The notes: generated from the letters alone by a model not told the origin. A stretch of 64,000 nt of DNA from Bilabrum cf. latius (GCA_965178125.1 OZ237739.1:1178001-1242000), one strand, 5' to 3'. Shown: positions 22,744 to 64,000, counted from the stretch's first letter. Translations and numbers: made by a program.

Positions 22744-22790
22744 TTGATATATATTAGTTAGTTAATATATATTTAAGTCATTTTAAACGT

Positions 22791-26034: not shown

Positions 26035-26041
26035 GGAGTAT

Positions 26042-26617: not shown

Positions 26618-26625
26618 TTATATAT

Positions 26626-27696: not shown

Positions 27697-27788
27697 TATA
27701 TATAATAATAAAATAAAATAAACCATTTATTCACACGGGTTTAAAATATTAAGTTGGTTCCTTCTTCTATCCTTCCTCACAAAAAAAG

Positions 27789-28604: not shown

Positions 28605-28661
28605 TATATATTATAAGTATGGATAAATAACAAATTATATATACCCAATATATACAATAAT

Positions 28662-29051
28662 ATGAGCGTTAAATAGAGCATAAATGATATGACAAATAAA
28701 AGCCTTCATCATCTTGGAATAAACAGAAATGATTATAAAAAAGAAATTGATAAAATGGTTGAAGATACCGCAAACCAAATATTAAACGCAACCACAAAAG
28801 GAAAGACAAAAGGGGGAGCTGTAAACTTTCTTGGTGGATAGCCGAACGTTCTCGCTGGAGGTCCCAATTATCTCGCTGGAGGAAAAAAGAAGGGTTCAAA
28901 GAAAGCCCCTAAAGCTAAAAAGCCCCGTAGTGCTAAATAGTTAAAGAGGGATAAATTAATGAAATGGTGCCGTCAAAAGGGAATGACAATGAAAGCCAGC
29001 AATGCTTTTATAAAGAAACACGACCTTATGAATAAGGATATTTCATTTTAA
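28662..29051 (+). CDS. Basic putative core protein with repeated xGG motifs, 129 aa
   Basis: KGG, LGG, AGG, AGG followed by a Lys-rich C-terminus; 3 TAGs; TAA stop. Confidence 0.7.
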
Positions 29052-29128
29052 AAGACAGCCTACCAATTGACAAATTATCTCTTAAGTTTATAAATTATTA
29101 ATTATATCATTAATAATATATATATACA

Positions 29129-31198: not shown

Positions 31199-31243
31199 TT
31201 AGTCTATAGGATAATAATATTTTGTTTTGTATAGATATATATA

Positions 31244-31861
31244 ATGGCAGAGTTAGTAGCAACAGCAAGCACGGTTGGTGGGGTGTTGGTTCCTCTAGGA
31301 TATGCGGGATGCTTCCTTTGGAACTTATGTTCCTCACTTGCGAATCGTAAAAAATTGTGTTTAGTCCTTCCACGAAAAGGAGGTAAAAGTTCACTTAACA
31401 AAAGTTTAACGTCTATAGACCCGAATATTCTATTAGTTGATTTAGATGAAGTCCTTAAAGTTAATGCTGACACCAAACAGGTCGTACATTTGAATGACGC
31501 CGAAGCTAGGGGCGACGTATCAACAGCCAAACTTTTAAAATTTGAGCTTATGAAAAAAAGCATTGAGAAAGTTAAATCAAATTGGTTATAGAAAGCAGAA
31601 CATAGAGCCGTCTTTCTTACTTCAGATTTTGACCTAGCAAAAGAAATATTCAAGCCCTCCAGCGTGTGTGTAGCAATACCAAGCGATAAACTATACAGCA
31701 ATATCTCTAAAGATTTAGACGAGAAGGATAAAGCAGTAGCTAGACATTCACGAGCTGAATTTTTGAAGAGCTTTAACCCTAATGAATATAGCGTATATAA
31801 TACCTTTGAAGGGCTTTCATAGATGGTGATGTCAGTGTATAATATGACGTATAGAGTTTAA
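31244..31861 (+). CDS. P-loop kinase-like protein with hydrophobic N-terminus, 205 aa
   Basis: LVLPRKGGKSSL, LLVDLD; 2 TAGs; TAA stop. Confidence 0.65.
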
Positions 31862-31959
31862 TTTTAAAAACTGATTTTCTTAGAATATACTTTAAGTATA
31901 AATAGAATAAAAAAGGCTTATACAGAAAACAACTATTAACAATATAAAACAAATATAAA

Positions 31960-32667
31960 ATGCCTGATTATTCAAAAGGGAAAATATACCGGCTGTATTC
32001 TTTAAAAGACCCATCATTACAATGCTATGGTTCAACCTGCTAGACATTGAGTTAGAGAAAAGGGGGACACATTAGAGCATATAAACAATACATTGAAGGG
32101 AAGCGACACTACCAGACATCATTTAAAATAGTTGAATTAGGCGATGTTAGAATTGAATTAGTTCAATGCGTAAATTGTAAGAATAAGGAAGAGTTGTTAA
32201 AAATTGAAGGTCAATATATTCGTGATAATGAGTGTGTTAATAAGCGTATAGAGGGAAGAACAAGAAAAGAGTATTATCAAGATAATAAGGAAAGAATAAA
32301 AGAATACTTAGAGAAGTATCGTAAAGACAATGAAGAAAGAATAAAAATTAAAGTGAAAAAATATAATAAGGAGAATGAAGAAAGAATTAAACAGATTAAG
32401 AAAGAATATAACCAAAAAAATAAAGAGAACATTAGTATGTAGTTGAAAGAGTATCGTAAAAATAATAGTGAAAGAATCAAAGCAATGGAGAAAAAATACC
32501 GTGAGGACAATAAAGAAGAACTTAAAGTAAAATCAAAAATCTATTATGAAAAGAATAAAGCCAGACTATGCGAGAAAATTAAGTGTGATATATGTGGATG
32601 TAGTGTATCAAGACAAGGAATGAGGCGCCACCAAAAAACGAAGAAATGTAAAGACTCTAGGGTCTAA
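31960..32667 (+). CDS. GIY-YIG endonuclease with C-terminal zinc ribbon, 235 aa
   Basis: YSKGKIYRL..CYGSTC*TLS*RKGGH..IELV..EELLKIEGQYIR..CVN; CDICG..RHQKTKKC. Confidence 0.9.
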
Positions 32668-32674
32668 TTATTTG

Positions 32675-32704
32675 AATATTATTAAATAATAAATTAATAA
32701 TATT
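32675..32704. terminator. AT-rich hairpin between convergent GIY-YIG and integrase genes
   Basis: AATATTATTAA / TTAATAATATT stem; a similar hairpin lies at 16865-16887 between convergent genes. Confidence 0.5.
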
Positions 32705-33861
32705 TATTTAGTCTTATTATTAAAATTATCCTTTAGAGTTTTTGATATATTTTTAGCCGGCTCCGTTGTTATCTTCCATTGAATTAAATATTCATCTTGT
32801 CCCTCTTTATTCTTTCTTCTCTTTATTATTTTACCTATATCATTCTAATATTTTCTTTTAGTAGCCTCATCAACATATGAATCTTTCCATTTAACCCTGT
32901 ATGTATTATTTTTATTCTTTCTTATCAATTTTTCAATTATAAATATATCTTGTGCTTTATTCTCGTATGGTTTAGATGCTAATAACAACTAATCTCTATT
33001 AAAGTATGTATAGGGTATGCCCTCAATTTTATATAATGGGGGGTTATCTGGTTTTATTATTACTCTTTCAATTTTATAAGGCTTTACGCTATATTTAATA
33101 TCTCCCGCCCTAAATGCTCCGGTTTCCTTTATCCCTTCTATACTTCTAGGATAATCTAATCCTATTCTTACCATTTCGCCCTCATTTAATACATCACATA
33201 CTTCACCCTAACATCTAGGCGGTATATATGGTAGATTCTCCCTTTTCTTATTCAACATTTCCTATCTTGTTTTATAACGCTCGTTTAATATCTCCCTCAA
33301 CTTTGGTATTAAATGTCTCCAGTTCGTAATAGTTGTCCCCGTTCTTATCTCCTATGAATTCAAATAATAAAATATAGCTCTCCCTATTTCCTCATTCAAT
33401 CTCTCCACCAAAGCCATCTACGATTTACGCTTCACTCTTGAAAATATATGCTCTATCTTATTCTTCTTTAGATATTCTTTAAATGATTCATTATCAAATT
33501 CTCCCCCTTTATCTGTTCGTATCATTTTAGGTTTCATTAAATAATTTCTTTTATAGATTTTTTGAAAAGCTTTTATCACATCCTCCGCCCCTCTATCCTT
33601 TAACTCTTCAAAATCTAACGCTAATCCGCTAGTATCTATCACAACTAATAAATATTTTGAATCGTTCTTGGTAGCGTAAGGGAGATACAATAAATCAGCC
33701 TATTGGATAAGCCCCTCTTTAGTAGGTTTATAATATTTAACATAATTCAATCCTTTCGGTTTCTTTATCGGCTTCATTAAATCGTTCGTGATAGACTTCG
33801 TATTAAATCCAAAACTTGATTCATTAATATCATTATCTTTTTTCTTTCCTCTCTTACTCAT
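32704..33861 (-). CDS. int: Retroviral-type (rve) DDE integrase with C-terminal chromodomain-like segments, 385 aa
   Basis: Q*ADL, YLLVVID, IRTDKGGEF, LVERLN; FIIEKLI..YRVKWKD and IIKRR..EYLIQWK..EPAKNI. Confidence 0.92.
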
Positions 33862-33901
33862 TATATATATTAATTGATTTTAATATTTATAAATTAATTA
33901 T

Positions 33902-34273
33902 TCACGAATTAAAAAGCCTATTAATAGCTTCATTCGTTTTAATGTGCTCCTTGGTGTCTCTTATCTCCTAATGGATATCAACCAGCTTTAATTTTTCTTT
34001 CTTAGTGAGTCCGTTCATCCTTCCTTTTAATGCTTTTAAAGTTTTCATATAAGGGGCTATAGCTTCTGCTTTCTTTTTGCTCACCTCTTTATATTCCACA
34101 TTAAGAGCGGTTAATTTACTATTCACTTTATTTTTTAATTCTGTCTCTTTTATTTTTAGTTGCTTTAACTTTTGTTCTAATTCACGATTGGTCTTCTTAA
34201 AGTCTTCTACAATATCAAGAAATTCATTCTTTAACTTTGAGCGGGTATTAATCACTTTTTGTAATTTATCCAT
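33902..34273 (-). CDS. Coiled-coil protein, 123 aa
   Basis: Track ORF extended through TAG to TGA. Confidence 0.65.
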
Positions 34274-34283
34274 TTATATATAA

Positions 34284-34613
34284 TTACTAGATATTTTTTT
34301 TATTTTTTTTAAACTTCATTTTAACTCTTTGTAATTCTCGTGCTATTTCTAATTCCATTAATCCCCTTATTATTCTGCCATCGTGATAATCCTAAACTGA
34401 ACAATGAATCAAATCATTCTAAACTGCCGGTAAAGGTATTCTATACATCAATTCATATTTAATAATCTCAAGCGTTATTCTGCCTGTTCTCTTCTTCAAA
34501 GCTACCCCTAATAAGAGCGGTATTTGTTTATCAGAAACTCTTTTGAATGTCCCTCTAACTATTTTTAATATTCTGCTTATACTCTAATCTGTATAAATTG
34601 CTCTAAAATCCAT
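34284..34613 (-). CDS. Hypothetical protein, 109 aa
   Basis: ATG to TAA with TAGs only. Confidence 0.5.
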
Positions 34614-34716
34614 CGGTATATACTAAACCTATATTTTTTTTATTTATTTTTTAAACTATAGAATTTTATAAAACGGGTTTAATAAATTAAAATAAAATAT
34701 TGGGCTACATTATAAT

Positions 34717-35133
34717 ATGTTCGTTAAGTTCCTGTTATCAAGTGTCAACGTTAAAAAGGTACTCAAGAATAAAAGCATCTCCACTTTTATGTCAATCGTA
34801 TATATTTATGTTGAGAAGCACAAACCATCAATGTTAAAGCATTTTCAACTTGATGACCTTCGTGTCCCTCCAGATTGTAATGAACGACTTAAAAAAAGAG
34901 TATTAAGTGAATTTGAAGAAATTGATTATATATCATATTTCGTTCAACCATTTAGAATAATACACAAGCTAAATGAAGAAAATGTTGAATGCCTAAGTGA
35001 AGACTTAAATGATACCGTAGCCATAGATTTATTGGTTAAAAAAGAGAAGGAAGCCATTGAGAAATCAATAAAGAAATAGAAGGATGACATCATCAAAAAG
35101 GCTATAGATGACTTTATCTTACCCAAGGATTAA
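34717..35133 (+). CDS. Hypothetical protein, 138 aa
   Basis: Track ORF extended through TAG to TAA. Confidence 0.65.
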
Positions 35134-35183
35134 ACTATATATTAATAATAATAATAATAATAGTATTATTAAAATTCAAAAAT

Positions 35184-35531
35184 TTATTCTAAAAACTCAA
35201 TATCAAACCATTCATTTGAATCATCATATTCTTCAGCATACATCAACGATAATTCTATATACTCTTCTAATTCACTATTAGTAAGGTTATCAATTTCTTC
35301 TTCTTTCAATAGTTTGAAATCGGTTCCGTTGTCATCATTAAAACTTTCAACTTGACCTTCTGCTTCCTTTTTATATTCTTCTTTCCAATTATCACTCCAT
35401 ACAACTCTCTTCGCTTGGTCTTTTAAAGTGTCAGTATAAAGCTTTTGTGCTTCTTCCTTATTATTAAACTTTTTAACCCAGTGTGTATGATAACATTCAC
35501 TACCCCACGCTAATGATACAATATAAACCAT
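35184..35531 (-). CDS. Acidic hypothetical protein, 115 aa
   Basis: Open ORF ending in TAA. Confidence 0.65.
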   Translation of the reverse strand: MVYIVSLAWGSECYHTHWVKKFNNKEEAQKLYTDTLKDQAKRVVWSDNWKEEYKKEAEGQVESFNDDNGTDFKLLKEEEIDNLTNSELEEYIELSLMYAEEYDDSNEWFDIEFLE

Positions 35532-35572
35532 ATCTATAATAATTAAAAGTAAAATAATTATTATAATAAAAC

Positions 35573-36151
35573 TTAATTAAAATTATCCTCTATCTCTTCT
35601 CGCTCCTCGTTATCCAATACCCATTTTAATCTTGAAGGGTGCCACGCTCTAGAAATTAATTCTTCTTTATATTTTTTTGTTGTCTCAATTATCTTATCTT
35701 TTCTATTTTTCCAATACCTGTTATCAGTTAGCGTATATATTATGTTCTCTGATATAGTCTCAAAACGTTTTACTTTCTGTTTATGGTTCTGGATTATTGC
35801 TTTAATCTCGGGAGAACGTGAAACCCGCTCATTTATTAAACTCTGAATACTCCTCCTATTTCCATAATATCTTAAATGTTCTATTTCACTATTAGTTAAT
35901 CGGTTTTCTTTTACTTTTCTCATTTTAGATATTGTATCCTATTTGATAATCCGTAATTTTATTTTCTAATACTTTTTTAATACAAGGTATAAAATCTACT
36001 CTATAGCTTCATCCTCATTATCATATAAATCACATAGATAATTATATCGTTCCCAATGGACTCGCTCAGCTTTTCTAAGAAATGTTTTAGACGGTCTAAG
36101 CTCCTTTCTCAAACTCATAGATTTTTTGGTTAATAGTTCTAAGAAATCCAT
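35573..36151 (-). CDS. Hypothetical protein, 192 aa, with C-terminal KEEL..AWHPSR motif
   Basis: Extended upstream through 3 TAGs to the ATG at 36151; promoter motif upstream. Confidence 0.7.
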
Positions 36152-36220
36152 TCTGTATATACCTATAATAAATATATTTTTTAAGTCAATTTAAACGCTC
36201 TATAACAATTTAAAAATAAA

Positions 36221-37012
36221 AGCGCGTTTGTTCCATTTGTGAAGGTATAAGCGAGGATAAGGGGGTATAATGAAGGTAGTTTAGAAGGTTGAATAATGGA
36301 GTCCCATAAAGTGATGGAACTTTTGGCTAGAAAATGGCTAGAGTCCCATAACACCTTCACAAACTTGAGTAATCCACGTAATGAGAATTAATACTGAACT
36401 TGAATATTCACATTCATTTTTATTTATACATATACTTTTAAAGACCAACATTTCCTAAGATATACTGAACTTCAACTTCAATATTCATTTTCATTTTTTT
36501 TAATATTTATACATTCATATCATATATTTATTATTTATCAATATATTCTTTTAAATTAAATACTATTATGACCCATTATTATCATATTTAATATTCTATT
36601 TAGCCCTAAATTACCATTTCAAGGGGTACCCCTTAGATAATCATTCTAAATATATAATTTTATTGCTTTACCTTCATTAATGATTGAACTTGAATTAATT
36701 TTATAAATTTACATTGAACTTTAGAAGGTCAAATAATCACCCTTCTAAAATGAAGGGACTATTTTATACTAAAACACCAAAAGTCCCATTTGACCTTCTA
36801 ACAAAAGCCCCGGTACAAGAAATGTTATAATATACTATATAAATAGCATTTTTTGTACTATATCTTTTATAGAGGTTTCCTTGACTTTTGGAGCGACTAG
36901 CGACAAAAGGAGTGGAATGGACTGAAGAGCTTTAGCTCTGATGGACTGGAACTATTGAAACTTGTTTCCTTAACCGAAGGGAATAAATTTATTTATTACC
37001 GTAGCGGGGGGG
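36221..37012 (-). repeat. Right terminal inverted repeat (792 bp)
   Basis: Reverse complement of 11476-12267. Confidence 0.97.
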
Positions 37013-39552: not shown

Positions 39553-41103
39553 ATGGCAGGTCCAGATGAGGTGATTGACCTGGTGAGCAGTGATAGTGAA
39601 GAAGAGTTCGAGGGAAACCCCGGCGGAAGCATGGGTGTTAGTGTTCGTGCGGAGGCATCATCTGGACTGCTGGGAGCCGTTGTATCACGGAGTGGGCGAG
39701 CTGGGCGAGGCAGCATGGCTGTTGGTCCAGAGTTGTCGTCAGCACCAGGTTCAACAGCTGCATTGCCATTGGCTTCTGGAGTCGAGTCGACTGAATCAGT
39801 GTCATCTAGTGCAACCAGCACAAGGGCCCGTTTGGGGCAGAAGAGAGTCCGTGAAGACTTCGAGGCTGCCGTAGAAGGTGGCGATGCAGTGGATGAGCAC
39901 GGTGCAAGCAACAAGAAGAAGAAGAGGAGGAGAAAGGAGCAGAGTCCAGCGACAGGAGAACTCACCGGCGATAGGAGCAGGGGATACTATTGCTCTGTGT
40001 GCGGCAAGCGCTTTGGGCAGGCAGGCCATCTCACGAAGCACATGAGGACTGTGCACCTTGGGGAGCGCAATCACGAGTGCTCTGTGTGCGGCAAGCGCTT
40101 TGGGGAGGCAGGCCATCTCACGACGCACATGAGGACTGTGCACCATGGGGAGCGCAATCACGAGTGCTCTGTGTGCGGCAAGCGCTTTGGGGTGGCAGGC
40201 ACTCTCACAACGCACATGAGGACTGTGCACCTTGGGGAGCGCAATCACGAGTGCTCTGTGTGCGGCAAGCGCTTTGGGCAGGCAAGCAGTCTCACGAAGC
40301 ACATGAGGACTGTGCACCTTGGGAAGCGCAATCACGAGTGCTCTGTGTGCGGCAAGCGCTTCGGGGAGGCAGGCCATCTCACGAAGCACATGAGGACTGT
40401 GCACCTTGGGGAGCGCAATCACGAGTGCTCTGTGTGCGGCAAGCGCTTTGGGCAGGCAGACAGTCTCACGACGCACATGAGGACTGTGCACCTTGGGGAG
40501 CGCAATCACGAGTGCTCTGTGTGCGGGAAGCGCTTTGGGCAGGCAAGCCATCTCACAAAGCACATGAGGACTGTGCACCTTGGGGAGCGCAATCACGAGT
40601 GCTCTGTGTGCGGCAAGCGCTTCGGGGTGTCAGGCACTCTCACAACGCACATGAGGACTGTGCACCTCGGGGAGCGCAATCACGAGTGCTCTGTGTGCGG
40701 CAAGCGCTTTGGGCAGGCAGGCAGTCTCACGAAGCACATGAGGACTGTGCACCTCGGGGAGCGCAATCACGAGTGCTCTGTGTGCGGCAAGCGCTTTGGG
40801 TTGGCAAGCAGTCTCACGAAGCACATGAGGACTGTGCACCTTGGGGAGCGCAATCACGAGTGCTCTGTGTGCGGCAAGCGCTTTGGGGAGGCAGGCAGTC
40901 TCACGACGCACATGAGGACTGTGCACCTTGGGGAGCGCAATCACGAGTGCTCTGTGTGCGGGAAGCGCTTTGGGCTGGCAGGCACTCTCACGACGCACAT
41001 GAGGACTGTGCACCTTGGGGAGCGCAATCACGAGTGCTCTGTGTGCGGCAAGCGCTTTGGGGTGGCAGGCAGTCTCACGAAGCACATTGTAGCAATGCAC
41101 TGA
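39553..41103 (+). CDS. SIM-NLS-C2H2 zinc-finger array protein, copy 4 (13 fingers)
   Basis: Open even in the standard code: GAG stands where the other four copies have TAG, showing that the N-terminus and fingers are one ORF. Confidence 0.95.
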   Translation: MAGPDEVIDLVSSDSEEEFEGNPGGSMGVSVRAEASSGLLGAVVSRSGRAGRGSMAVGPELSSAPGSTAALPLASGVESTESVSSSATSTRARLGQKRVREDFEAAVEGGDAVDEHGASNKKKKRRRKEQSPATGELTGDRSRGYYCSVCGKRFGQAGHLTKHMRTVHLGERNHECSVCGKRFGEAGHLTTHMRTVHHGERNHECSVCGKRFGVAGTLTTHMRTVHLGERNHECSVCGKRFGQASSLTKHMRTVHLGKRNHECSVCGKRFGEAGHLTKHMRTVHLGERNHECSVCGKRFGQADSLTTHMRTVHLGERNHECSVCGKRFGQASHLTKHMRTVHLGERNHECSVCGKRFGVSGTLTTHMRTVHLGERNHECSVCGKRFGQAGSLTKHMRTVHLGERNHECSVCGKRFGLASSLTKHMRTVHLGERNHECSVCGKRFGEAGSLTTHMRTVHLGERNHECSVCGKRFGLAGTLTTHMRTVHLGERNHECSVCGKRFGVAGSLTKHIVAMH

Positions 41104-44103: not shown

Positions 44104-45567
44104 ATGGCAGGTCCAAATGAGGTGATTGACCTGGTGAGCAGTGATAGTGAAGAAGAGTTTGAGGGAAATCCCGGCGGAAGCATGGGTGTAAGTGGTCGTG
44201 CGGAGGCATCATCTGGAGTGCTGGGTGCCGTTGTATCACGGAGTGGGCGAGCTGGGCGAGGCAGCATGGCTGTTGATCCAGAGTTGTCGTCAGCATCAGG
44301 TTCAACAGCTGCATTACCATTGGCTTCTGGAGTCTAGTCGACTGAAGGGGTGTCATCTAGTGCAACCAGTACAAGTGCCCGCTTGGGGCAGAAGAGAGTC
44401 CGTGAAGACTTCGAGGCTGCCGCAGAAGGTGGCGATGCAGTGGATGAGCACGGTGCAAGCAGCAAGAAGAAGAAGAGGAGGAGAAAGGAGCAGAGTACAG
44501 CAGCAGGAGAACTCACCGGCGATAGTAGCAAGGGATACGACTGCTCTGTGTGCGGCAAGCGCTTTGGGGTGGCTGACAATCTCACGAAGCACATGAGGAC
44601 TGTGCACCTTGGGGAGCGCAATCACGAGTGCTCTGTGTGCGGCAAGCGCTTTGGACGCCAAGACAGTCTCACAAAGCACATGAGGACTGTGCACCTTGGG
44701 GAGCGCAATCACGAGTGCTCTGTGTGCGGCAAGCGCTTTGGGGAGGCAGGCCATCTCACGAAGCACATGAGGACTGTGCACCTTGGGGAGCGCAATCACG
44801 AGTGCTCTGTGTGCGGCAAGCGCTTCGGGGAGGCAGGCAGTGTCACGAAGCACATGAGGACTGTGCACCTTGGGGAGCGCAATCACGAGTGCTCTGTGTG
44901 CGGCAAGCGCTTCGGGGAGGCAGGCAGTCTCACGACGCACATGAGGACTGTGCACCTTGGGGAGCGCAATCACGAGTGCTCTGTGTGCGGCAAGCGCTTT
45001 GGACGCCAAGACACTTTCTCGACGCACATGAGGACTGTGCACCTTGGGGAGCGCAATCACGAGTGCTCTGTGTGCGGCAAGCGCTTCGGGGTGGCAAGCA
45101 GTCTCACGACGCACATGAGGACTGTGCACCTTGGGGAGCGCAATCACGAGTGCTCTGTGTGCGGCAAGCGCTTCGGGGAGGCAAGCAGTCTCACGAAGCA
45201 CATGAGGACTGTGCACCTCGGGGAGCGCAATCACGAGTGCTCTGTGTGCGGCAAGCGCTTTGGGGAGCCAAGCAATCTCACGACGCACATGAGGACTGTG
45301 CACCTTGGGGAGCGCAATCACGAGTGCTCTGTGTGTGGGAAGCGCTTTGGGGTGGCAGGCCATCTCAAGACGCACATGAGGACTGTGCACCTTGGGGAGC
45401 GCAATCACGAGTGCTCTGTGTGCGGCAAGCGCTTCGGGGTGGCAAGCAGTCTCACGAAGCACATGAGGACTGTGCACCTTGGGGAGCGCAATCACGAGTG
45501 CTCTGTGTGCGGCAAGCGCTTTGGGGTGGCAGGCCATCTTAAGAAGCATTTGAAAGCGATGCACTGA
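44104..45567 (+). CDS. SIM-NLS-C2H2 zinc-finger array protein, copy 5 (12 fingers)
   Basis: Same architecture, internal TAG at 44335-44337. Confidence 0.92.
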
Positions 45568-51575: not shown

Positions 51576-54500
51576 TTACAGCACTGCCGCCCCCTTGTGC
51601 TCGGGCAGGTACAGCCTCGCTCCTTCCTTGCCCACGATCCTCCCGACCGCGAACTCTAGCACGCCTAGGTGCATCTTCATGTGCCTGGGCAGGCTGTCAC
51701 AAGCGCCACCCTCACCTATTCCATCCCCGCTCCCAGGTACTGCGTCCTTCTCCTCCTGCAGCCACCTCGCCTCTGTGTCCACGCAGGACAGCAGCTTGGC
51801 TCTGCAGTTCTGCAGCAGCGCCACCGCCTCCATGTCGGAGCCAGACAGCTTCGGGGACGCGGGCGGGGGCTCAGGGATGCGTGGCTGCGCAGCGGACGAG
51901 TCTGAGTCATCATTGGTAGGGTCTGCGAGCTAGTGCCGCATTTGCTGCTGCTAGCGGTTGAATGCATCCACCACCTCGGCCGCCGCGGCCCCGTCCATCC
52001 CGCACTGCATCAGCAGGTCCTCGCCGCTCGTGGCCAGCCTGATGGCTCGTGACAGCCCGAACACCTGCCTCCGGACGGCCTCTTCCTCCCTTCGAAACCA
52101 TGCGAGGAAGGTGGGCGAGTGCAGGAAGCGCCAGTACAGCTCTCGCCAGTCGGCGCGCAGCTGCTGCACGATGGCGGGAGGCCCAATGGATTCCAACCTT
52201 TGCATGGCAGCAGCAGCCGAGAAGCGAGGCAGGACAGCCTCCACGATGGGATCGTATGGCCCGTACCCCTCTCTGCTGCTGGGGCTGCTGCTAACTGCAG
52301 TCGCAGCTCCCCCCGACCCGTTTCCATCAGCTGCGCTTCCCGCTGCAGCACTGGCCTCCGACTCGGCTGGCCCCCCGCTAGTTCCAGCGATAGACTCTCT
52401 GGTAACGTGCGCCTGGGCCAGCGTGAGGCCGGGGATCGGGCTGGGTGCCGGGGCCCTGGCCGGGGTGCGAAGGGCGGCGGGGACTGCCGGCCCGCGCAGG
52501 TCTGTGGTCACAAAGTGGCGGAACGGCTCCACCATCGCCGCGGACAGGGCCCGAAAGTGACCGCGCAGAATTGCGTCGTTGATCGCGGCACCAACGCAGG
52601 CCCCGCCGCCAGCAGAGCGACCACCAATGACGACATCTCCGTCCTCGTCATGGATCCCGCCCACCCTGGCTTGCACAACGATTGCTTCTGCCGCGGGCAC
52701 ATCAAGTAGAGCTCGCAGCGTGTCCTCGTGGGGCTGAACAAGCGGAGGCTGCTTCAGGAGCACCACCCCTGCGTTCGTTGGGCGCTGACCAGGCCTAGGG
52801 AGGTGCTTCGCCGTTGCCAAGCTCTCGCCCTCGTCCAGCACAACAGGGAGTGGCGGCGATGCATGGGGTCTCAAGCCCACGACGGAGCCCCGACTGTAGC
52901 TCGCTCGCGATGGTCTCGACCTATTTGACATGAGCCCGGTCGGCGAGGGCCGAAGCCCGCGGGGGCTGGCTTCACTGTTGGCGGCGGGACTAGCTGGGCT
53001 GTCCGGCCTGTCAGGGGATACTACATGGGCCGCCGCCGGCTAGCCCGCAACCGCTCTGGCAGCGCGCTTCATGGCGCCATCGGATGCCGAAAGCACAGCC
53101 AAGAGAGACTTCCTCTCCTCTGCGGCCCGCGCCGCCAGGGAGAGGGTGGAGGGCGACTCTGCGCGGGGTGGATGCGCGGCTGCATGCACCCCTGACCCTG
53201 ACCCTGACCCTGACACGCTCTGAACGTCGCTCTCCGTGGAAGCCCTCCAGTCCTCTGCTTCCTCGGGGGTCGGTGGCAACGCGTCGGGGTGGGCCTGGAT
53301 GGCCACGCAGCAGGGTGCGTCAGACCAGGCGTGGAAGAAGAAGGGGTTCGTTGTGCCCAGAACGAGAGGGACGCAGTCAGGCGAGGCAGGACGAGGACCC
53401 CCACGGTGCTTGCTGCTGCCTGAGGCAGCACCAGCCGGGGCAATGCCAGTCGCGGGGGTCCACGGTTTCTTGCCAGGCTCAAGCCCCGCCGACGAAGCTT
53501 GCATAGATCCAATGGCGACAAGTGGTTCAGTCGTTTGAGAGCCCGCGGGTGCAGAGTCGGGCAACAATGTCAGTGGGTGCGGCCGGCCCCTACCGACAGA
53601 CTGCCTCTGTCCGCCCGGTGCACTCGTGCCTGCCGGTAATTTGGTCGCCAGTGCGGATAGTGGGTCGGTGCTAGTCGGCCGACGGGTCGGTGTTGCACCC
53701 GATGCACCAGAGGCATCGGGTGTTGCTTCATCGGCGGCTCGCGGCCCCCTCGAGAGGCTCCCAGAGGTGCGGCCACCGCCAAGACTAGCCGCAGAAGGGC
53801 CAGCGCCTGCTGCGCCGTGCACCCCACCGGTGCCGGATGCCACCCAAGATGCCGGCCAGCCGACGGTCTCGGCGCCACCATCCCCCGGGGTGCACCCAGG
53901 AGGTGCTCTCATACCGGCACCACGCGGTGACCCTGCGAGACCGAGAAGGTCCGCAGAGCCGAGCGCTTTCCCGACCGCGGTCTGATCCCCCTCAAACATG
54001 GTGACGTACGGCCGGACGTCACCGCAGTACCGCAACGGAGCGACGAGACCGGCCACTCCGAGTACTGCCCTGCTGCAGAGCTCGGCCGAGGGCGCGAAGA
54101 TCACCACGGGCTTCGCCAGCAGGGCCCTCTCCCAAAGGGACCAAAGGCCAGGCACGAGCGGCCCGAACGTGGAGTACAGTCCCTGGCCTGTCTCCACGTC
54201 AAGCGCAAACGGTGCTCGGAGCAGCGGTGCAAGCACGTGTCCGTGCAGCGGGTGTTTGGGATCCGCAGTGGCCTCCTGCCGGCTGGCATCGCCATGCTCG
54301 TTTGGACGACCAACGCTCTACTCGAGTGCGAAATCACCGTGTACTGCAGTGTCAGACTTTTGCGGAGTCGATAAAGAGTCGGAGCCAGCCTGCGAGGGCT
54401 TCGGTGGTTCTCCAGACCCGGCGAGTCTAGGCGGAGAAGGCAGCGCGTGGGGCTTGCCTGGCGTGCTCTTGACACTACCATGAGACCCCGATGACTTGTG

Positions 54501-55817
54501 AATCTATTTGTGCTTGTAGAGAGTGTCAAGCCACCTTTCCCTCTTCTAAAGAGACCTCGCTGCCACCGACATGGGCACGCGGGGGTCGGCAAGGTCGCAC
54601 TGCCAAGCTGAGGAATGTGCCTTCAGCTGGGCTGCCTGAGGGGAATACCCCAGCACGCGCGACGGAGTGGTGGGTGCACTAGAGCCTGAGGGAGATGCTG
54701 TGCCATCTGTCTGACTGATGGCTCCGACGAGCGCAGGGCCAGAGCCTTTCAAGAGCTGCCCAGTGGCAGTGGCACCTGACCCTGTCGCTGCCCATTCACC
54801 CGATGCATGCCCACCTCCGATTGACCGGAGCTCGGTACCATACAGATGATCCGATTCACCCGTGTGTTCCCCAGCGTGTTCCCTCTCGTCCCTCGATCGC
54901 CTCCTCTACCTCGCCCGACTTCGCCGCAGACACGCGCTGATGGCCTGCTGCTGCCTATCCAGCGCAGAGCGCACCGCCCTGACAGCAAGGGCCTCTCCCG
55001 GTATACCGGTGTGCAGCCACAGGTCCACGGGAACTGCAACTCGGAGCCGCTGGCCCAGCAGTGGGAGCCGCATGCGCACTCCAGGGCGAGGGGGGTCCCA
55101 CCGCAGCAGCTGCTCCCATGCCGCCTGCAGGACGGCAAATGCTGCGGGGCCGAGGTCGGTAGAGGACCGTGGGCGGGATTTCGAGGTGATTGCGGCTGCA
55201 GAGTCGCCAGGGCTGCTGCTCCCAGGTGCCTCGGAGCCTCGGTGGGTAGTTGCGGCCCCTGCAGCTGCTGGGCTGGAATGCAGGCGTGCTACTGCCGTTG
55301 CGGCATCTTCTTGCATTGCGATTGACAACAGGGCGCGCCCAACCACCGCCACTACTTTTCGCAAGGCCTGCAAGCACGGCAGCCTGCTGACTGCGACGAC
55401 GGCCCGCTGAGCAAAACCACGCCGCTTCGTGTCGTCGCGCTACTGTCGGAAAAATGAAGCACCATATAAATAACTGTGATCACCCGGTGGACACGCAAAC
55501 AGCGGTGTCTCGTCACTGCGAGCGGTATCGGCAACGCATAAACCGAAAGGCAAGTACGATATTTTCTAGACTGTGACCACATGCTCAGAGACACTTGCTT
55601 ACGTTCGAGCTCTAAATACATACAAACTGTCGCCGGGGTGAGCAGCAGAGGCGTTCGAGTCAGGCAAAGCAATTGCAGCGATCTGGGACTGCTCTCGCGC
55701 AGATAGCGCTCCCTCTGGTGCAACCCTGCGCATGGTCTGTCCGTGATCAACATCAAATTCACAGACAGATAAGGCAGTAAACCACGAGCAGACGGGCGCG
55801 TCTCTAGCCCCGGCCAT
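51576..55817 (-). CDS. DENND6: DENND6-like Rab GEF (DENN domain), intron-containing, TAG=Gln
   Basis: VCEFDVDHGQ..ALPDSN, LWERALLAKPVVIFAPS..CS.AV..PLRYCGDVRPY, LGTTNPFF, LRGHF, LYWRFLHSPTFLAWF. Exon borders not resolved. Confidence 0.8.
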
Positions 55818-55925
55818 GTTGTGCGCCGCAGAATGCCGACGTCTTTGTGAAGCTCCGATCGGCAAATCGACGTGAGGCATACGACCGACATTTATTTTGG
55901 CCAGGAACACGGCCATCCAGCAAGA

Positions 55926-58900
55926 ATGGGAAATGAAACATCAAGTCAGAACAGTCTGCTGCATTCCAAAACTGACAACACACCCGTTGGCTCTCTTAAA
56001 CAGGGGAAAAATGTACTTGAGTCCAAGAAAGAGACGGTGTTTGCGTCGGACGGACGTCGCCTTGCTCCCGGCGAAGTCGAGTATCTAAGGCTCCTTCGAC
56101 CTGGGGAGCACGTCATTCCGAATAAATGCAAGCACATAGACTCGGAGATTCGCGGGCCATGGGACTGCAGACCAATGACTGGCGTCGTAGCGCAATCTAT
56201 CCGTCCGAGTCCTGCAGCTACAGTGATGTCGTGCCGTGGGAGTGCTGCTGATGGATCGTACATGGTGGCAACATCTTCAGATTATGTGGATCAATTTGCT
56301 GGCTTGCGCGTTGGAGTGAAGGTTTACCCCACAACGCCTGCAGATGAGGAAGCTCGTCGAACGGGTGAAGTATAGTTTGGCAATGTTGACGAGGCAGCAC
56401 CGGCTGAAGTGTGGACCCGAGAATCTACTAAGTGCCCCCCTGCAGCTGGTACACCAGCTGTATGCGAAAAAGCTGTGTGGGTCGTGAGGCAGCTCACGTC
56501 GGTGGGCGGTAAGCTAGCTGCAGGAGCATCGCGGGAGCTGGATCTTGCCGATGCTGACACCATCACGGCTCTACCGCTAGCCCTAGATATTATTGGCGCG
56601 ATTCGAATGGCTTGCAAATCGAGCGAATCGAAGCAGGCGCTGCGCTCTCTCGAGGAAGCCCTCGTGGAGCACCTGGTGCTAATGTGCGTCCGAGCCTCTG
56701 CAGAGGGATGGGACGGATGGGACGGCCATGGGACCGCGGGGCGGCCCCGCGGTGTGACGAGTGCGCTAGAGAGCCGCCGGTGGAGCAGTGCGCTGGCCAG
56801 GCGGGTGTCCGAATGGCCTGTGCTGGCGCGGGCTTGCGCCATCGAGGTGTGCATTGCGGCGCAGGAGCCCTACGAGGGGCAGCTGCCTAGCGCCACAGTG
56901 CTTGAGTGGAGCGATGAGAGGGAGCAGCAAGCGGCCGGAGGAGACAAAGGCGGCGGTACGGGAAGCGCTCGCACAGAAGGCACGGGGGGGCCTAAGCGGG
57001 TCACGACGAGGTATCTGGAGCGACTGAGCCTGGGCCTCTTCGGCGCCCTGCACCAGGTCATCGACACGAGGTGGGCCGCCACAGGGAGGTACTTGCTGGC
57101 GAGGATGCCCATGAGTCCAGCCGGTAGGGAGTGGGCGTTGCAGCAGGCGGAGAGCAGGGAATCGAAGCCAGCAGCTGGGGCGAGCGGTGCGGCGGCGGGT
57201 GAAAGTGATGCGGGTTTGGATGTGGATGTGGAGGCTGCAGACCCGGGGTCAGCTGGCTTGGATCTAGCTGCGGCAGAGCGTGTCGTGCCCCATCCGCCTG
57301 TCCTGGAGGAATAGGGAGCAGCTGCAAGCAGTGAATCCACGCACGGTAGACACGAATCAGTGGCACAGGTGTGGCCCCCGGATTACCCCAGCCCGGGTGT
57401 CCCCCCGTGGTGGTAGGAGCCCGGGGGCTTGCCCGGAGGCGAGCAAGACGTGCCGAAGCCTCCTCCCAACGCACGTCTCCCCTCAACGATGGCGTGGTTG
57501 GAAGCGTACACGCGCTGGAACGCCGCCACTGCCGGGCTGGCGAGGGTCTGGAACACGTGCATCGACCCCACTCTGCTGCTAGGTGGCCTTGCGAGCAGGC
57601 GCGGCAGTGATGTTCGGCGACTACGGCGCGAGCTGCTGCAGGCGTCTGTACTGCTGGGCAGCGCAGACTCGATCGAGAAAGAGGCCGTGGAAGCCGCATC
57701 GAGAGAAGCGGCCGAGGTGCACCGACATGCGAAGGAGAGAGAGGTAGCGGTCGAGGGCAGCCCGAGTGAGGCCAAAGGTGGCGAGGGCGAGCCCGCTGAT
57801 GACACGGAGCCGGGCCACGCCCCTGCTCCGAGCGCAGACTCCATCGAGTTTCACCGCAACCGCATGGTATCTGAGCTTGTGAACAAGCCCCTGCCGGAGC
57901 TCCAGGCCGCCTGCGCCGGCTTCCGAGCTGGCGAGATGTGGAACGCACTGCCAGAGGGTCTCACCGCCTGCCGGACACCGAGGGCAGCTCGCGATAAAAT
58001 GTTCGAGCTGCTCGAGCCCGTGGGTCCAAAGGAGGCGCCGTGGCAGTACTTCTGCGTGGCTGGCGGTCTGCCCCTCCGGGCAGCGTGCCCCTTGCCGGAC
58101 CCGCCGGAGCAGGAGATGCGCCCCGACATTGATCTGTGGCTCCTTGGCGATTCGGCGGAGCAAAGGACGGCCAGGGCGAGGATGTGCTTGGCTCATTTGG
58201 CCAAGCACATGCCGGACCACATCGCCGTGCTAAGCCGGGCCCTCGTCCGTCTGCAGCCCACCAAGCCCGGGCACGCAGAGGCCCAGCTGATGGTGCCAGA
58301 GGCGAGGCACAGCCGCGGTGTCACAGCCATGTTCGATGTGGACATGGTGCGCTGTGCCTTTGACGGGAAGCACTTCCAGGCTACCCCCGATGCATGCATG
58401 TCGTACGCCTGCCGTACCGTGCTGACCAGCCTTTGTCCAGTGCGTGCGAAGCGAGCTCTCAAGGCTCTCGCCAAAGGCTTCATCTTCGGCCCCGGCGTGC
58501 GATGGGAGTGCCCCGATCTCGAGGGAGCATACCTGTGCCTGGGCCTTCCCGAGGACCGGTGGCCCACCACGGAGCCTGTGAAAGCCAGGATCAACAAGAA
58601 GGGCGAGCTGGCCAGGGATAGGCCAAGCAGGGAGACGGATGCTAGCACCAGCAAGGTCAGCAAGGTCACGGCCGGTGCCAGCTCGCAAGCTGCATCCGAT
58701 GCAAGCCACTCATCGAGCAGCGCACTCGCCAAAGGCGAAGCATCGGCTGGGGCTGCCGATTCATCAAACCCTGCGGGCGTAGCGACAGAGCCAAGCGAGG
58801 CGGACCGCGAATCGAAAGCACCAGGCTCTGGTGCCGGAGAAAGCGCTGCACCGACAACCCCTGCACGGTAGGCAGCCGCACCTGCAGGTGCCGCCGACTC

Positions 58901-60398
58901 GGCTGGGAGGACTTCTGCCAGGTACATCAAGCGCGAGTTTACGTCGGTGCGTGAGGCGCTGCGCGCCGTCCCCGGAGCGGTGCTGGCGGCGAGACTGGGG
59001 GCTCGCGGGGCTGTTCTTCAGATCATGCGCGCGTTCGACCCTGCCCCCTTCGAGCGCTTGTCACCTGGGTGGCGCCTCGGCCCCGAGTTGCAGGCGCTGG
59101 TGCTGCAGGCGAGGGAAACGATGCAGGCTGCCATGGCGGCTCGAGCCGGGGTGCAGCCGAGCGTGACTGCGGGACAGTGGCGTCGCGGGGGTGGCATGTG
59201 GCTGCCTCGGCGCGGGCATGCCGAGCGTCGCAAGCACCGGCAGGCAATGCTGATGCGGCTGCACAAGGAGTTCGGAGGGGATTCCAAGACGTTGGACGGC
59301 GCTGGCAAGGGGACGGGAGGTGTCGGCACACGAGGCCGCGAGAGGGATGACTTTGACGATGATGGGGAAAGAGAAGACCAAGAGCCCAAGGGCAGGGCGG
59401 GAAGCGTCGAGGACGAGGAAAACGATGGAGGTGCAGAGGGCGGGGACGAAACTGCCGTTGTGCAGGTGTCCACGCACTCGGAGCTGAAGGACTACGAAGG
59501 GAGGATGGAGAAGCAGAGGGCCTTCATAAAGAGGCGGGGCAAGGGCAAGGGCGGAACGGGGGGAGACGACCAGATGGGACTGGACGTCGGAGACGAGATG
59601 ACAGGTTACGAGAACCAGGCTGTGCGCAGCCGGCGGCTGGACCCCGGGGGCGTGACAGGCTTTCCAGGCCGGGGCGACACCCGAGACGTCGCAAGGTGGC
59701 AGGCAAGGCGCCGCGTCATGCCTGTCCTGCTGCAGATCGTCAGGGTCTGGTACTAGCCGCCCACCGCTGGCTCATCAAAGGTGGTCAAAGACGGCGAACG
59801 CGTGCAAGCCAACGCGGATGGAGGCACACTCGTTCTATCGGCTCGTCGCAGCGAGCAGCGGGGCGCATTCGAGTGCATTTACTGGCTTCGGCAGTGCCTG
59901 GTGCTCATGGCAGGGCAAGAAGAAGCCGACGCTTGCGTGCCCGTGTGCCCTGCTGAGCTGGAGGAAGACGACGCGCTGCTGGCTGCCGACCAAGGCAGTG
60001 GCGATGGTGCACGCGCAGGCGCAGGCGCGGGAGAAGTGTCCAGTGCGGCGGGCGGTGCCAGTGCCGACGAGCCCGATCCAGCCCGCGCCATCCCACCACC
60101 TGCGTTCGACGAGGCAAGGGTGGTGGTGGATCCTGGCAGGAGCGGTTCCATGCTGGCAGTGGAGGCAGCGTCCCCGCACGCGTTCGTGAGTGGGACCAGC
60201 GGGCCAGTGAGACTGCCCAAGGGGAGGGGCCTGGAGTTCTTGCACGGCAAATGCGCCAGGGCTTTCGTGGTTGTTGTGCCTGGCCGCAAGGCGTTTTGCC
60301 TGAGGCTGCAGCTGCACAGTCCGCACGAGATCGACCTGAGACAGTCAGTCTACGGCATGGAGAAGCTGGTGAGATACGGGGCTGCTCTTCGAGAGTGA
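55926..60398 (+). CDS. 1490-aa host protein with nucleotidyltransferase-like domain and MG N-terminus (TAG=Gln)
   Basis: Five track ORFs lie in one frame separated only by TAG; VAGG...PDIDLW...FDVDMVRCAFDG; ends TGA. Confidence 0.8.
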
Positions 60399-60563
60399 AG
60401 GCCGTGTTGTTGTCACTGATAGTTCCGGTTGTGCGTCTTGTTGAACGCAGCCGGTACCTGGGAGCGCACAAAAAAAACATTGCAGTGCATCCGATGCAAA
60501 TCCATATGGATAGAGCGGATCCGATCATTGCTTAGACGCAGACATTCTAGCAGACCCGTAATT

Positions 60564-63494
60564 TCAGCCCCTTGATTCCCCCGAACCACCAGTCACATCC
60601 AAGTACCGCACCTCGAAGGAGCGCCCCCCAGCGATCCCTGTCCTGCGGCCCTCCGTCTCGTGCGTGGTCCAGAAGCTGGTTCCGCCTGTATCTGCTCCAC
60701 CGCGGATCGTGCTCACCCCGGACGATGCCGCCACTCGACCGGCCAAACTCACCCCCGAGGAGGACGACTGGATCAGCGCCCTCTGCATATGCTCTCCAGC
60801 GCCGCCTTCTTCATAGCTACCTTCACGGGCATCGTTTCCACTGCGACCATCGGCCTCACCACCTCCCTTCGACACAGGCGCCGGTCCCACCTGCCTGCCC
60901 ACCAATCCATCGTCTGTGTGCCCTTCAAACGGTCGCAAGCTCTCTGCAGCCCGGCCGCTCCGCAAGTTCTCCCGCAGCCGACTTGGAGTAGGCACCTACA
61001 CGACCCCGCCTGCGAGCATCACCGAGCCGCTCCCGCTTGCAGTCCCCGCAGCTGAGGCAACGTCCCACGGGCCCGGGATAGACGCGCCCGACTGCACGCT
61101 GGTCACACTAGATTCCTTCGACCTATTCGTCACACCGGCGTTCTTCTGCTGCTGCACGGCTCGATCGCGATCCCACTTACGCTTCGGTGGGGCCTGGCCA
61201 CTGCTGTGTGGATGCTAGTCGGCTTGGCTTGCCATTGCTTGACCGGCCTGCGGTGCATCGGCACCGTGTCTGAAATCGTCGCCGGCCCCGCCCAGCACGG
61301 CATATCCCGTCTCTGCGAGCTCAGCACGAGGCCGCTGCATTGATCTGTCGATCTATCCCGCCTTGCTTGTCTGCGGTCGCGTGGCCGTGCCAGTGTGCGC
61401 TGTGTTTGAGGAGAAGGCGACCGCGTGCACTGCATTGTGGCTCGGCGCACTGGAGGGGGCCTGGCCATCAGCGCCGCTTGAGCTCCGCAAACCAGTAGCA
61501 GTGTCGAATCGGTCGCCGTGGTTCTGGCGGTACCGCATGCCTAGCCCGCGCGATAGCGTGCTGCTTGGGTGATGCATGCCCGAACTGCTGGCAGTGTGGA
61601 GCTGGCCGGTGCTGTGGGCAGAGGAGGCCGCAAGTACCTGCACCTAGAGCGAAGCATCGTCATGCGCTGCGCTGCTGCCATTCAACTTTCGCAGGCTGCC
61701 ACCACTGGTAAGCGCCGACTCCGGCGCACCAGAGCCGCCTTCAACTGGGTGTACGCGCGCGGATAGACTCGCCCCTCTACTTCCTCGTACATAGGATACA
61801 CCACCACCACCGCCACCACCGCCACCACCACCGCCACCACCGCCACCACTCGTCACACCAGCACCACCACCAACAACAACCGCCCCGCTCAGGGCACCAC
61901 CACCCGCATCTTTCGAGACGTTTACCTGCGATTGCTGTGCTGTTCCCCAGCCCCAGGGCCACTAGGAGAACAAACCACGAGATGGCTTGGCACTTGTGAC
62001 TTCACCATGAGCAGCTTGTTCCCTGGATTGTTCCCTGGTGACTCCAGGTGGTTGCGCCTGTGCCCTCGGCCCTGCCATGCTGACGGCTCCCGCGCTGGAA
62101 CCCACTCTCCCAAAGACATGAGCCGCGCTCTCTCTCATCACAGCAACCGCACGGTGGCTCGTAGAGCTTTGCTATCTGGCCATCGTCTGCGGGTACACAC
62201 CCGGCCCGGTAGAAGGGGTGAAGGGATCATCACCTTCCATTTCATCGCCAGCAATGTGCCGTTCCTGATACCTAGGCGACAAGCTACCCTACAGGGCCGG
62301 TTGGAGACTGCCTTTGCGCACCACGGGTGATTGGTCCACCAGCTCCAATGAGCTTCCGCCGGTACCCGATGTAATCCCCGCTGTGCCTGACGTCACTCCC
62401 GCCGTCACTCCCGCATTTCCTGAAGTCACACCTCCAGCGCCCGCGCTACTGCCTGTCAGTGTGGCAGACTAACCCCCCGCTAGGAGCCGCGTTGGTCTGC
62501 CGCCCCGCTGCAGCGCACTGCCAGCGCCGATGGGCCGCGGTGCCGAAGAGCCGTCGTGGCTCCGCACACGGCCCAAAGTGAGCCGGGGGTGCGAATGCGC
62601 GGCGCCAGTGCCAGTTCCGCTCATGCTCAGCAACCCGGCGCTGCTGCTGCCCTCAGCCGTGGAAAGCTGCACCCTGAGCTCCTGCGCCTGCAGGGAATTG
62701 CGCGGCCGCCTCGCCGTAGCCTTCCCCATCCGCACGCCCGCGGGGTCCAGTCCCCTGCTCCATGAGATGAGCTGGTGCGACCAGTCCTTGGCTAGTGCCT
62801 CCCCCCTGTAGGCCCTGCTCCTGATCCGATCCCGCGCCCTGACGCGATCGTCACACCGAGCGTCGCTGCTCTCTAGCCCGTCAAGGGCCGACAGCGGCCG
62901 CGAGATGGCTGCCAGCTCCCCGCCCCGGGGCGAGCTCATCGTTCCGTCTCGGCCCGCGTCTGCCGGACAGGACGCAGCAGCCAGCGACCGGGCGGCGGTC
63001 GCTCCTTCGTACAATGCGGAACCAGCGCCTGATTCAGCGCTACTGCTAGTGATGATCGCACCCTTCCTGGCATTTGCAGCAGTGATTCCCTCGGGAATGC
63101 TACGTTCTGACACTGGGGAGTATCCCGTACGACGGCGCCTCGGGAGCACATCGAAGCGGGAAAACTTGTGCTTGCGGCGGCCGCGATGCGCTATGCTTTC
63201 ATTTTGTTTCATTGCAAAGTATCCCGGGTCTACATGGATGCCCTTGCCTGGTTCGCTTGCACCCAGTGCTTTCGCTTGGTCGTGACGTCGAGTTCGCTTA
63301 GGCGGTTCAGCGGCGGGCAGCGTCGTGCATGCTCCTCTCGCTTGGGCTGAGCAAGGCCTTGAGCCTACTGACTGTATAGCGTCAGTTTCTATCCCTGCGC
63401 GCGAGTTAGCGCTGCGCAGCTCGCCGTTTGTGCGACCGCCACCAAGCTGTCGCGGTCGCAGTGTCAATTCCACCTGCAAAACCGGTCGTACCAC
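60564..63494 (-). CDS. Low-complexity Gly/Ser/Ala-rich host protein (about 975 aa or more; 5' end uncertain)
   Basis: Track ORFs at 62469, 61644, 61353 and 60564 share a frame and join through TAG; ends TGA. Confidence 0.6.
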
Positions 63495-64000
63495 GAGCGC
63501 TGAACACTACATTGTGCATTTTAATGGGCTAAGCATTTTGGGTTCGGTATCGCACACAATGCACTGATGGGGAGCGGTAGCATCTACATTAAGGAGAGCC
63601 AACTGGAACGAGTAGGGAAGATCCCCCGAATCAAGGCTGTAGCCAACCCTTTTGGGCAGCGTGGGCTACAGCATTGATCCAAAATATATTCTCTCCGAAT
63701 CAGATGGCCCATAATCCCTTATCTAGCAAGACAGTGCTCTTCAAACGTCAGCGGTGACGTTTTGCCGAGGTTGGAAGCAGTCTCTTACCTGTGCATCCTC
63801 CGTAGCAGTGCTGCTGCCACAAGCACCCATTGAATGACGAATTAAGTTTTCACGACCAGCTCCATCAACGGTCCAAATCAAGACCTGCTGCGTGCATTCC
63901 GCAATCTGACCCGCCGGGGTTCGTACGGCGGCTAGTCGTAGCAGCGCTCGTCATCCTCCAATCTATCTCTAAATGCAGTAAACCCGCGCGCAAGCTACGC

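Follow-up and report, generated by a model that had tools for sequence, protein, structure and literature searches.

A GC-rich protist locus and its integrated mavirus-like virophage in which UAG probably encodes glutamine

Changes of the nuclear genetic code are rare, and codes that split UAG from UAA are rarer still. The code in which UAG alone becomes glutamine (Gln) is itself already known. In the part of PMC11687900 available, this code (NCBI table 15) is reported from Iotanema spirale, Protocruzia tuzeti and the phyllopharyngean ciliates Hartmannula sinica and Trochilia petrani, and UAG is reported to have been reassigned otherwise to Leu in a rhizarian and to Ser in Scotinosphaera. Here, a stretch of 64,000 nucleotides from Bilabrum cf. 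latius (GCA_965178125.1 OZ237739.1:1178001-1242000), called the window below, is analyzed for the meaning of the TAG codons that lie in frame in three long host genes (A, B and C), in zinc-finger genes and in an integrated mavirus-like virophage. With a probability of roughly 0.88, UAG encodes Gln in the nuclear genes while UAA and UGA still terminate, a code of the table 15 type; the virophage uses this code too and depends on it. Those who sequenced the host may well know its code already.

Iotanema spirale (Fornicata) is likewise a non-ciliate in which only UAG has gone to Gln, with a tRNA-Gln(CUA) postulated, as far as the available parts of two papers describe it (PMC5304391, PMC11687900). 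Its dominant stop is given as UAA (PMC5304391, in part), whereas TGA closes seven of the eight host coding sequences (CDS) modelled here, or three of four with paralogues counted once, and the present host is 62% GC. Hartmannula sinica, Trochilia petrani and Protocruzia tuzeti have the same codon table, but these are ciliates, with 27.4-53.6% GC for the class Phyllopharyngea in the available text (PMC11687900), whereas the present case is a stretch of at least 64 kb with 62% GC, a tandem array and a 25.5-kb virophage. That range is also the only figure against which a remark in the original prediction, made earlier from the sequence of the window, was checked: that most known stop reassignments are in AT-rich genomes. 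Our impression is that nothing in the window is ciliate-like.

With respect to the virophage, the integrated polinton-like or virophage-type elements of Streblomastix strix are described in the part of PMC10120064 available as also following the deviant code of their host; there, UAA and UAG are both reassigned to Gln, whereas here it is UAG alone. The nearest counterparts of the present element in architecture come from Cafeteria burkhardae, whose mavirus-like elements are low in GC (PMC8547959, in part). Like those endogenous mavirus-like elements (EMALEs), the present one is low in GC while its host is high, and it has terminal inverted repeats (TIRs), a short target-site duplication, a primase/helicase and a gene like that of protein-primed DNA polymerase B (pPolB), the integrase domain rve, and a putative series of ATPase, protease, penton and major capsid protein (MCP) (PMC8547959, PMC6972860, in the parts available). 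The same portions of the two papers put the Cafeteria nuclear genome at about 70% GC and call only its mitochondrial code non-standard, whereas TAG appears to be sense in both host and element here. Judged by GC content and described code, neither this species nor Halocafeteria seosinensis, at 47% GC, fits the present host. The full-text literature searched (main texts outside subscription journals) held no GC-rich non-ciliate with UAG = Gln and no virophage in such a code. In code-15 bacteriophages (crAss-like and Lak phages), TAG is reportedly Gln in the virus while the host keeps the standard code. Those phages deviate from their hosts, whereas the virophage here conforms to a host whose own genes carry in-frame TAG.

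Genes A, B and C lie at 51.6-63.8 kb and are open for about 970-1490 codons, but only with TAG read through (Table 1). With the standard code, TAG alone divides their frames into pieces of 5 to 484 codons. The long read-through frames run over 51576-55598 (minus strand) for gene A, 55851-60398 (plus) for gene B and 60564-63740 (minus) for gene C. According to the original prediction, five consecutive open reading frames (ORFs) at 55872-60398 share one frame split only by TAG, and this proved correct: they make up gene B, the frame of which is cut by five TAGs into segments of 174, 312, 33, 484, 294 and 213 codons and ends at TGA. The parallel claim for four minus-strand ORFs at 60564-63494 held in part. 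The frame is indeed split by TAG alone, 11 times over 60564-63740 with a TGA at its end, but into more than four segments, and the 63494 end and three of the TAGs are intronic. The string CGC TAG CAG CAG CAA that had been quoted from gene A is exact, as the reverse complement of 51942-51956.

After removal of the introns, genes A-C comprise 3770 in-frame sense codons, among them 21 TAG (8 in A, 5 in B and 8 in C), no TAA and no TGA. The other five frames of the same genes (n=18853 triplets) contain TAA, TAG and TGA at 1.7, 6.37 and 12.41 per 1000, from which 6.4, 24.0 and 46.8, respectively, would be expected in 3770 codons; the Poisson probability of finding none is 1.6e-3 for TAA and 4.8e-21 for TGA. 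In the host frames TGA and TAA are thus purged and TAG stands at its neutral frequency, a pattern far beyond chance. This agrees with the earlier proposal of a GC-rich protist with UAG reassigned and TAA and TGA kept as stops, the host flanks (1-11475 and 37013-64000) being jointly 61.9% GC. In 20 of the 21 TAG-bounded segments of at least 30 codons, the same frame scored best of six under a codon model that had been trained on the remaining segments. The exception was one 96-codon segment of gene C; the last segments of A, B and C were each assigned to the frame of the gene.

Contigs of four public runs were compared with 50001-64000, and the stretch is present in runs of four studies. No base differences are listed at 51589-64000. 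One contig, from run X1, is unbroken through 51589-61794 and includes the gene A intron. The contigs of runs X5 and X6, which come from other studies than X1, end at gene borders. Gene B is covered by a single contig in each run (X5 record 11, 55908-60477; X6 record 17, 55921-60485), both contiguous and with 0 other letters, and the contig ends lie 8-13 nt apart on either side. The X5 contig is 4570 nt long, of which the read-through ORF of gene B takes up 4473, leaving about 97 nt. X5 record 10 (51589-55515) covers gene A, and X5 records 12 and 13 cover gene C exon 2 minus 61795-61889, a Gly-run repeat skipped in the comparison; these pieces also show 0 other letters. At the introns, an X5 contig joins 55515 to 55603 in gene A, and contigs of both X5 and X6, from two studies, join 63471 to 63787 in gene C. 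Because the skipped stretches are GT..AG introns on the strand of the gene, we read the X5 and X6 contigs as cDNA-derived. Every one of the 21 coding TAGs falls within a listed X5 piece free of other letters; for listed X6 pieces, the number is at least 16. The TAGs are thus kept in contigs from which true introns elsewhere have been removed, which argues that they are neither spliced out nor edited, the two fates that the original prediction had considered.

In metagenomes, the conserved core of gene A matched two contigs, L001 and L002, each from a different metagenome and 99.96% identical to each other over 2730 bp. The gene A homologue on L001 has a frame open for 1062 codons with TAG 10 times and neither TAA nor TGA, and an intron (GTGAGC...) at the same position as that of gene A. 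L001 also holds the N-terminal part of a homologue of gene B, transcribed the other way, and the head-to-head A/B pair (window 55603-56400, L001 1-1100) is thus conserved. Between gene A and L001, 555 of 962 aligned residues are identical, and 52 of 56 in exon 1. Over the 962 codons, the proportions of differing synonymous and nonsynonymous sites (pS and pN) are 0.743 and 0.314; in conserved blocks (421 codons), they are 0.728 and 0.104, and the picture is unchanged in the segments that follow 5 and 6 window TAGs. With pN well below a saturated pS after the TAGs, purifying selection acts downstream of TAGs in two organisms that carry them at different places.

These data bear on the suggestion that the TAGs are untranslated, that is, that they mark pseudogenes, assembly errors, unspliced introns or edited sites. 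Such an explanation might appeal to the fact that CAG to TAG is a common nonsense change and that the host proteins A-C are low-complexity with no Pfam family, and yet we consider it hardly credible, since the bases are identical in contigs from four studies, TAGs stand in contigs free of introns, TGA and TAA nonsense is absent against 46.8 and 6.4 expected, pN is far under pS after the TAGs and the diverged homologue bears TAGs elsewhere, at sites of its own.

The comparison of gene A with L001 also indicates which residue UAG specifies. There are 17 pairwise TAG sites (8 in the window, 9 in L001), of which three fall opposite gaps or the contig end and 14 are aligned to a codon. At three sites, 16 or more of the 20 flanking residues agree, and TAG is opposite CAG at each: a window TAG at FFRQ-x-RDD matches CAG in L001, and L001 TAGs at GxGLYSTF and LPRPGx match CAG in the window. 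A fourth site lies in exon 1, where both L001 and L002 have TAG and the window has CAG (55737-55739, FDVDHG-x-TMRR) among neighboring codons most of which differ synonymously. At the well-conserved host sites, CAG is therefore opposite TAG in four of four cases, and GAG or GAA in none. Since neighboring synonymous sites differ freely, TAG and CAG act as synonyms.

The virophage repeats the host pattern in DNA of opposite composition. It forms a block of 30.6% GC between the GC-rich flanks, and its ORFs contain 108 in-frame TAGs, with at least one in 21 of the 23; they stop at TAA in 18 cases and at TGA in five. ORFs of up to 919 codons exist in the element although TAA occurs off frame at 46.6 per 1000 triplets. 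Taken with the absence of in-frame TAA and TGA from the host genes, such ORFs indicate that UAA and UGA remain terminators. Under the Gln reading, the host uses CAG 124, CAA 33 and TAG 25 times for Gln, and the virophage CAA 165, TAG 108 and CAG 21 times (TAG 108/294, 37%). In host and element alike the TAG count tracks that of the compositionally equivalent CAA, as expected of a long-established sense codon. That the code is nuclear follows from the GT..AG introns, the tandem C2H2-type array and an integrated element with a target-site duplication.

The primase-helicase gene of the element was used to decode TAG a second time, independently of the host genes. Its product was aligned with 150 listed homologues (27-47% identical) of 1168 at E<=1e-3, and the log-odds of the column contents were summed for each codon; columns with fewer than 75 occupied rows were dropped, which left 20 of the 26 TAG sites scored. 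For TAG, Gln reached +12.9, and the next-best residue was Glu at -11.2. Gln fills 139 of 149 rows at site 355, 146 of 148 at site 576 and 81 of 150 at site 438. As a control, 25 of 26 ordinary codons decoded to their standard residue, GAG giving Asp ahead of Glu; CAG decoded as Gln at -0.8. In the two closest listed homologues, with 24 aligned sites each, the partners of TAG are Q 6, E 5 and D 4 (P0005) and Q 6, D 5 and E 4 (P0006). None of 80 IMG/VR loci with related helicases has an in-frame TAG (78 lack any stop triplet, one has TAA and one was read out of frame), so the TAGs are specific to this element.

A sense codon with another meaning, most plausibly Glu, was weighed on the same data. 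Opposite TAG, the two closest listed helicase homologues have Glu and Asp most often after Gln, and GAG stands opposite TAG in one zinc-finger paralogue. With a helicase log-odds of +12.9 for Gln versus -11.2 for Glu, TAG in three columns where Gln is near-invariant or dominant, and CAG at all four conserved host sites, where GAG and GAA are absent, this reading is very unlikely.

A number of findings count against UAG = Gln. Four TAG columns of the helicase alignment are dominated by other residues (Tyr 100/135, Arg 99/139, Asp 89/150 and Asp 71/135). The decoding on the host side comes from a single gene pair, in which the other 11 aligned sites, low-complexity and with at most 12 of 20 flanking residues identical, place TAG opposite GCT, GCA, GGC (twice), GTG (twice), TTA, CCG (twice), GCC and GGT, that is, codons for Ala, Gly, Val, Leu or Pro. 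CAG to TAG is moreover the commonest nonsense mutation, and four of four is accordingly less independent than it appears. Among the zinc-finger paralogues, the codon right after ASGV is TAG in four of five and GAG (Glu) in the fifth, as the original prediction had noted. The whole proteins of genes A, B and C matched no Pfam family at E<=0.01, nor at E<=10. The kind of library behind X5 and X6 is only a guess, with X5 rated 'probably DNA', and among the runs containing the stretch none is recorded as RNA. ARAGORN and Rfam found no tRNA of any kind in the window, Rfam found no family there at all, and neither an eRF1 gene nor one for tRNA-Gln(CUA) lies in it. Finally, the statement that TAG is never a stop is partly circular, the ORFs having been closed at TAA or TGA.

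This last point leaves room for a context-dependent code as in Condylostoma and karyorelict ciliates, with UAG read as Gln inside genes and as a terminator near some 3' ends. None of the eight modelled host CDS ends at TAG, in line with the expectation of the original prediction that conserved host genes do not commonly do so, but by the circularity just named this count, with TAA once and five of the seven TGA stops from paralogues, is a limited test, and only four stops (TGA three, TAA one) are independent. TAG is also the last codon before the stop in 2 of 23 virophage ORFs and directly follows TGA in five of five zinc-finger genes. Within the long genes, the last TAG is 118 (A), 214 (B) and 144 (C) codons from the stop, too few genes to judge depletion near stops. 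TAG nevertheless occurs throughout the genes, to 118-214 codons from the stop, the segments after the last TAG score as coding in frame, and TAG is at its neutral frequency (21 versus 24.0 expected). Gene B, in addition, fills its contig but for about 97 nt only if it ends at TGA. A context-dependent code is accordingly unlikely.

If UAG does encode Gln here, the change may have come about as in other lineages with this code (PMC5304391, in the part available): a tRNA-Gln with anticodon CUA, one base from CUG, would read UAG and not UAA, and eRF1 would no longer recognize UAG. With no tRNA in the window, the element is, as far as the window shows, without a suppressor of its own and relies on the cell or a helper virus. 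Standard-code annotation of this organism, its metagenomic relatives and its viruses breaks most long genes, here 21 of 23 virophage ORFs and three of three long host genes. Standard-code gene calling would fragment any capsid relatives that use this code, and these would hence be missed. In the virophage we would have a eukaryotic virus in full equilibrium with the deviant code of its host, a case relevant to host range and to the notion of code changes as antiviral barriers. If the reading is true, the virophage, and by implication its giant virus, could be expressed only in hosts with the same code, and viruses with TAG-ended genes would be mistranslated. A compact carrier at 62% GC, apparently with cultures or transcriptomes, would be a tractable system for asking how eRF1 drops UAG and keeps UAA and UGA, and would allow a test of whether compositional 'codon capture' is needed: its composition favors stops containing G or C, and capture of UAG is not predicted by plain AT-driven codon capture. 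The broader picture seems to us evenly balanced between right and wrong. It comprises an undescribed GC-rich, intron-poor protist lineage with UAG = Gln and at least two members whose synonymous sites are saturated, a virophage long established in that code, a code that acts as a lock on the hosts of virophage and giant virus, and capture of UAG without an AT drive.

Table 1. Positions of the host genes, the virophage and the zinc-finger genes, counted from the first nucleotide of the window.
Feature	Position	Strand	Remarks
Gene A exon 1, coding part	55603..55817	-	MAGARDAPVCSWF from putative start ATG 55815-55817
Gene A intron	55516..55602	-	87 nt, GT..AG; holds 1 of 9 long-frame TAGs
Gene A exon 2	51576..55515	-	1312 sense codons, 8 in-frame TAG, stop TAA 51576-51578
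Gene A coding TAGs	55440-55442, 54906-54908, 54546-54548, 54504-54506, 54318-54320, 53040-53042, 51951-51953, 51930-51932	-	
Gene B	55926..60398	+	1490 sense codons, begins MGNETSS, 5 in-frame TAG, stop TGA, no intron seen
Gene B TAGs	56373-56375, 57312-57314, 57414-57416, 58869-58871, 59754-59756	+	
Gene C exon 1, coding part	63787..63830	-	MGACGSSTATEDAQ; spliced start MGACGSS; putative start codon
Gene C intron	63472..63786	-	315 nt, GT..AG; holds 3 of 11 long-frame TAGs
Gene C exon 2	60564..63471	-	968 sense codons, 8 in-frame TAG, stop TGA 60564-60566
Gene C coding TAGs	62469-62471, 62289-62291, 62172-62174, 61962-61964, 61644-61646, 61353-61355, 61215-61217, 60996-60998	-	
Mavirus-like virophage element	11476..37012		25,537 bp; 23 ORFs of at least 100 codons (6577 codons)
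Left terminal inverted repeat	11476..12267		792 bp, 100% identical to 37012-36221
Primase-helicase gene	13382..16141	+	919 sense codons, 26 TAG; used to decode TAG
Zinc-finger gene copy 1	2..1282	+	truncated by window start; TAG 224-226; stop TGA
Zinc-finger gene copy 2	4414..6051	+	begins MAGPNEVIDL, 29-residue C2H2-like repeats; TAG 4645-4647; stop TGA
Zinc-finger gene copy 3	9085..10896	+	TAG 9316-9318; stop TGA
Zinc-finger gene copy 4	39553..41103	+	GAG 39784-39786 at the site that is TAG in the other four copies; stop TGA
Zinc-finger gene copy 5	44104..45567	+	TAG 44335-44337; stop TGA

The virophage is complete-looking. Its perfect TIRs suggest a recent insertion, within one unit of the tandem array; a 5-bp target-site duplication, AATAC, flanks it, and the empty site is found in paralogous units at about 6539-6545, 1854 and 41591. 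Two Pfam families were matched above the cut-off, rve (43.3 bits, cut-off 32.6) and Prim-Pol (32.5 bits, cut-off 22.8). MCP_V20_C (E=0.0043, 16.9 bits, cut-off 27) and the Sputnik V18/19 penton family (E=1.2e-5, 24.7 bits, cut-off 27) stayed below it. The labels ATPase, protease and pPolB-like, and the putative order ATPase-protease-penton-MCP, come from our own reading of motifs and ORFs, without a database match. Against PDB, the integrase gave weak rve and chromodomain matches only, and in it a TAG falls at an ambiguous position in the motif before the catalytic Glu. The capsid gene (22791-24680, minus strand) had no relative at E<=1e-3 among proteins of near length in a search of 5.8 billion proteins. 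In IMG/VR, single-protein queries with MCP or helicase found no match, and relatives were found only with the helicase alignment as query. Two ORFs have TAG as their final sense codon, followed by TGA in 13382-16141 (at 16136-16141) and by TAA in 34284-34613 (at 34284-34289).

Of the host genes, A was called DENND6-like in the original prediction. This label was not confirmed, what lies behind it being motifs of the family and sub-threshold Pfam matches of gene A pieces only: Afi1 for exon 1 (E=0.062, 14.2 bits, cut-off 25.5) and Avl9 for the beginning of exon 2 (E=0.069, 12.2 bits, cut-off 22). A sequence search of PDB gave no match for genes A and B at E<=1. The structure predicted for the core of gene A, from an alignment of two rows, reached a mean pLDDT (predicted local distance difference test score) of 35.5, too poor for a fold search. 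Among shorter proteins, the sole match to this core was a fragment of 84 residues, 99% identical to gene A of the window; among longer proteins, the core (101 residues) had no relative at E<=0.01. Spliced, gene A reads MAGARD...SLYVFRAR|TDETPLF, with the bar at the exon junction, and its ATG lies 3-5 nt past the end of the X5 contig (55812). The Met-Gly starts of genes B (55926-55946, MGNETSS) and C (63810-63830, minus strand, MGACGSS) resemble N-myristoylation signals and may be such. Genes A and B are divergent, with about 95 nt between contig ends, and genes B and C are convergent, with about 60 nt between them; with such short gaps the genome looks very compact.

The flanks at 1-11475 and 37013-46300 form a tandem array whose units measure about 4.67 kb and are 92-98% identical to one another. 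Each unit has one gene with 12-16 C2H2-type fingers in a period of 87 bp (29 residues), the finger count varying by copy. In all five zinc-finger genes TAG stands immediately 3' of the TGA stop (1283, 6052, 10897, 41104 and 45568). These TGA-TAG pairs, like the TAG-stop ends of the two virophage ORFs, may be relics of former TAG terminators with a second stop, or may be due to chance. Long GC-rich ORFs 5' of the finger genes (2147-4375, for example) were excluded from decoding and not called genes, because multiple frames on both strands are open and the paralogues are frame-shifted. Just past the array, 520 bp of the repeat unit are found inverted at 48358-48877, with 96.5-97.7% identity to its counterparts at 1423-1942, 6108-6627, 41160-41679 and 45710-46228. 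Farther along, at 50935-51401, every assembly breaks and contig loose ends crowd at 51194-51247. Contig depth there is several-fold up in three runs (59.5 versus 6.45 in X1, 116.7 versus about 15 in X5 and 14 versus about 3 in X6), and the high depth together with the clustered loose ends points to a dispersed repeat.

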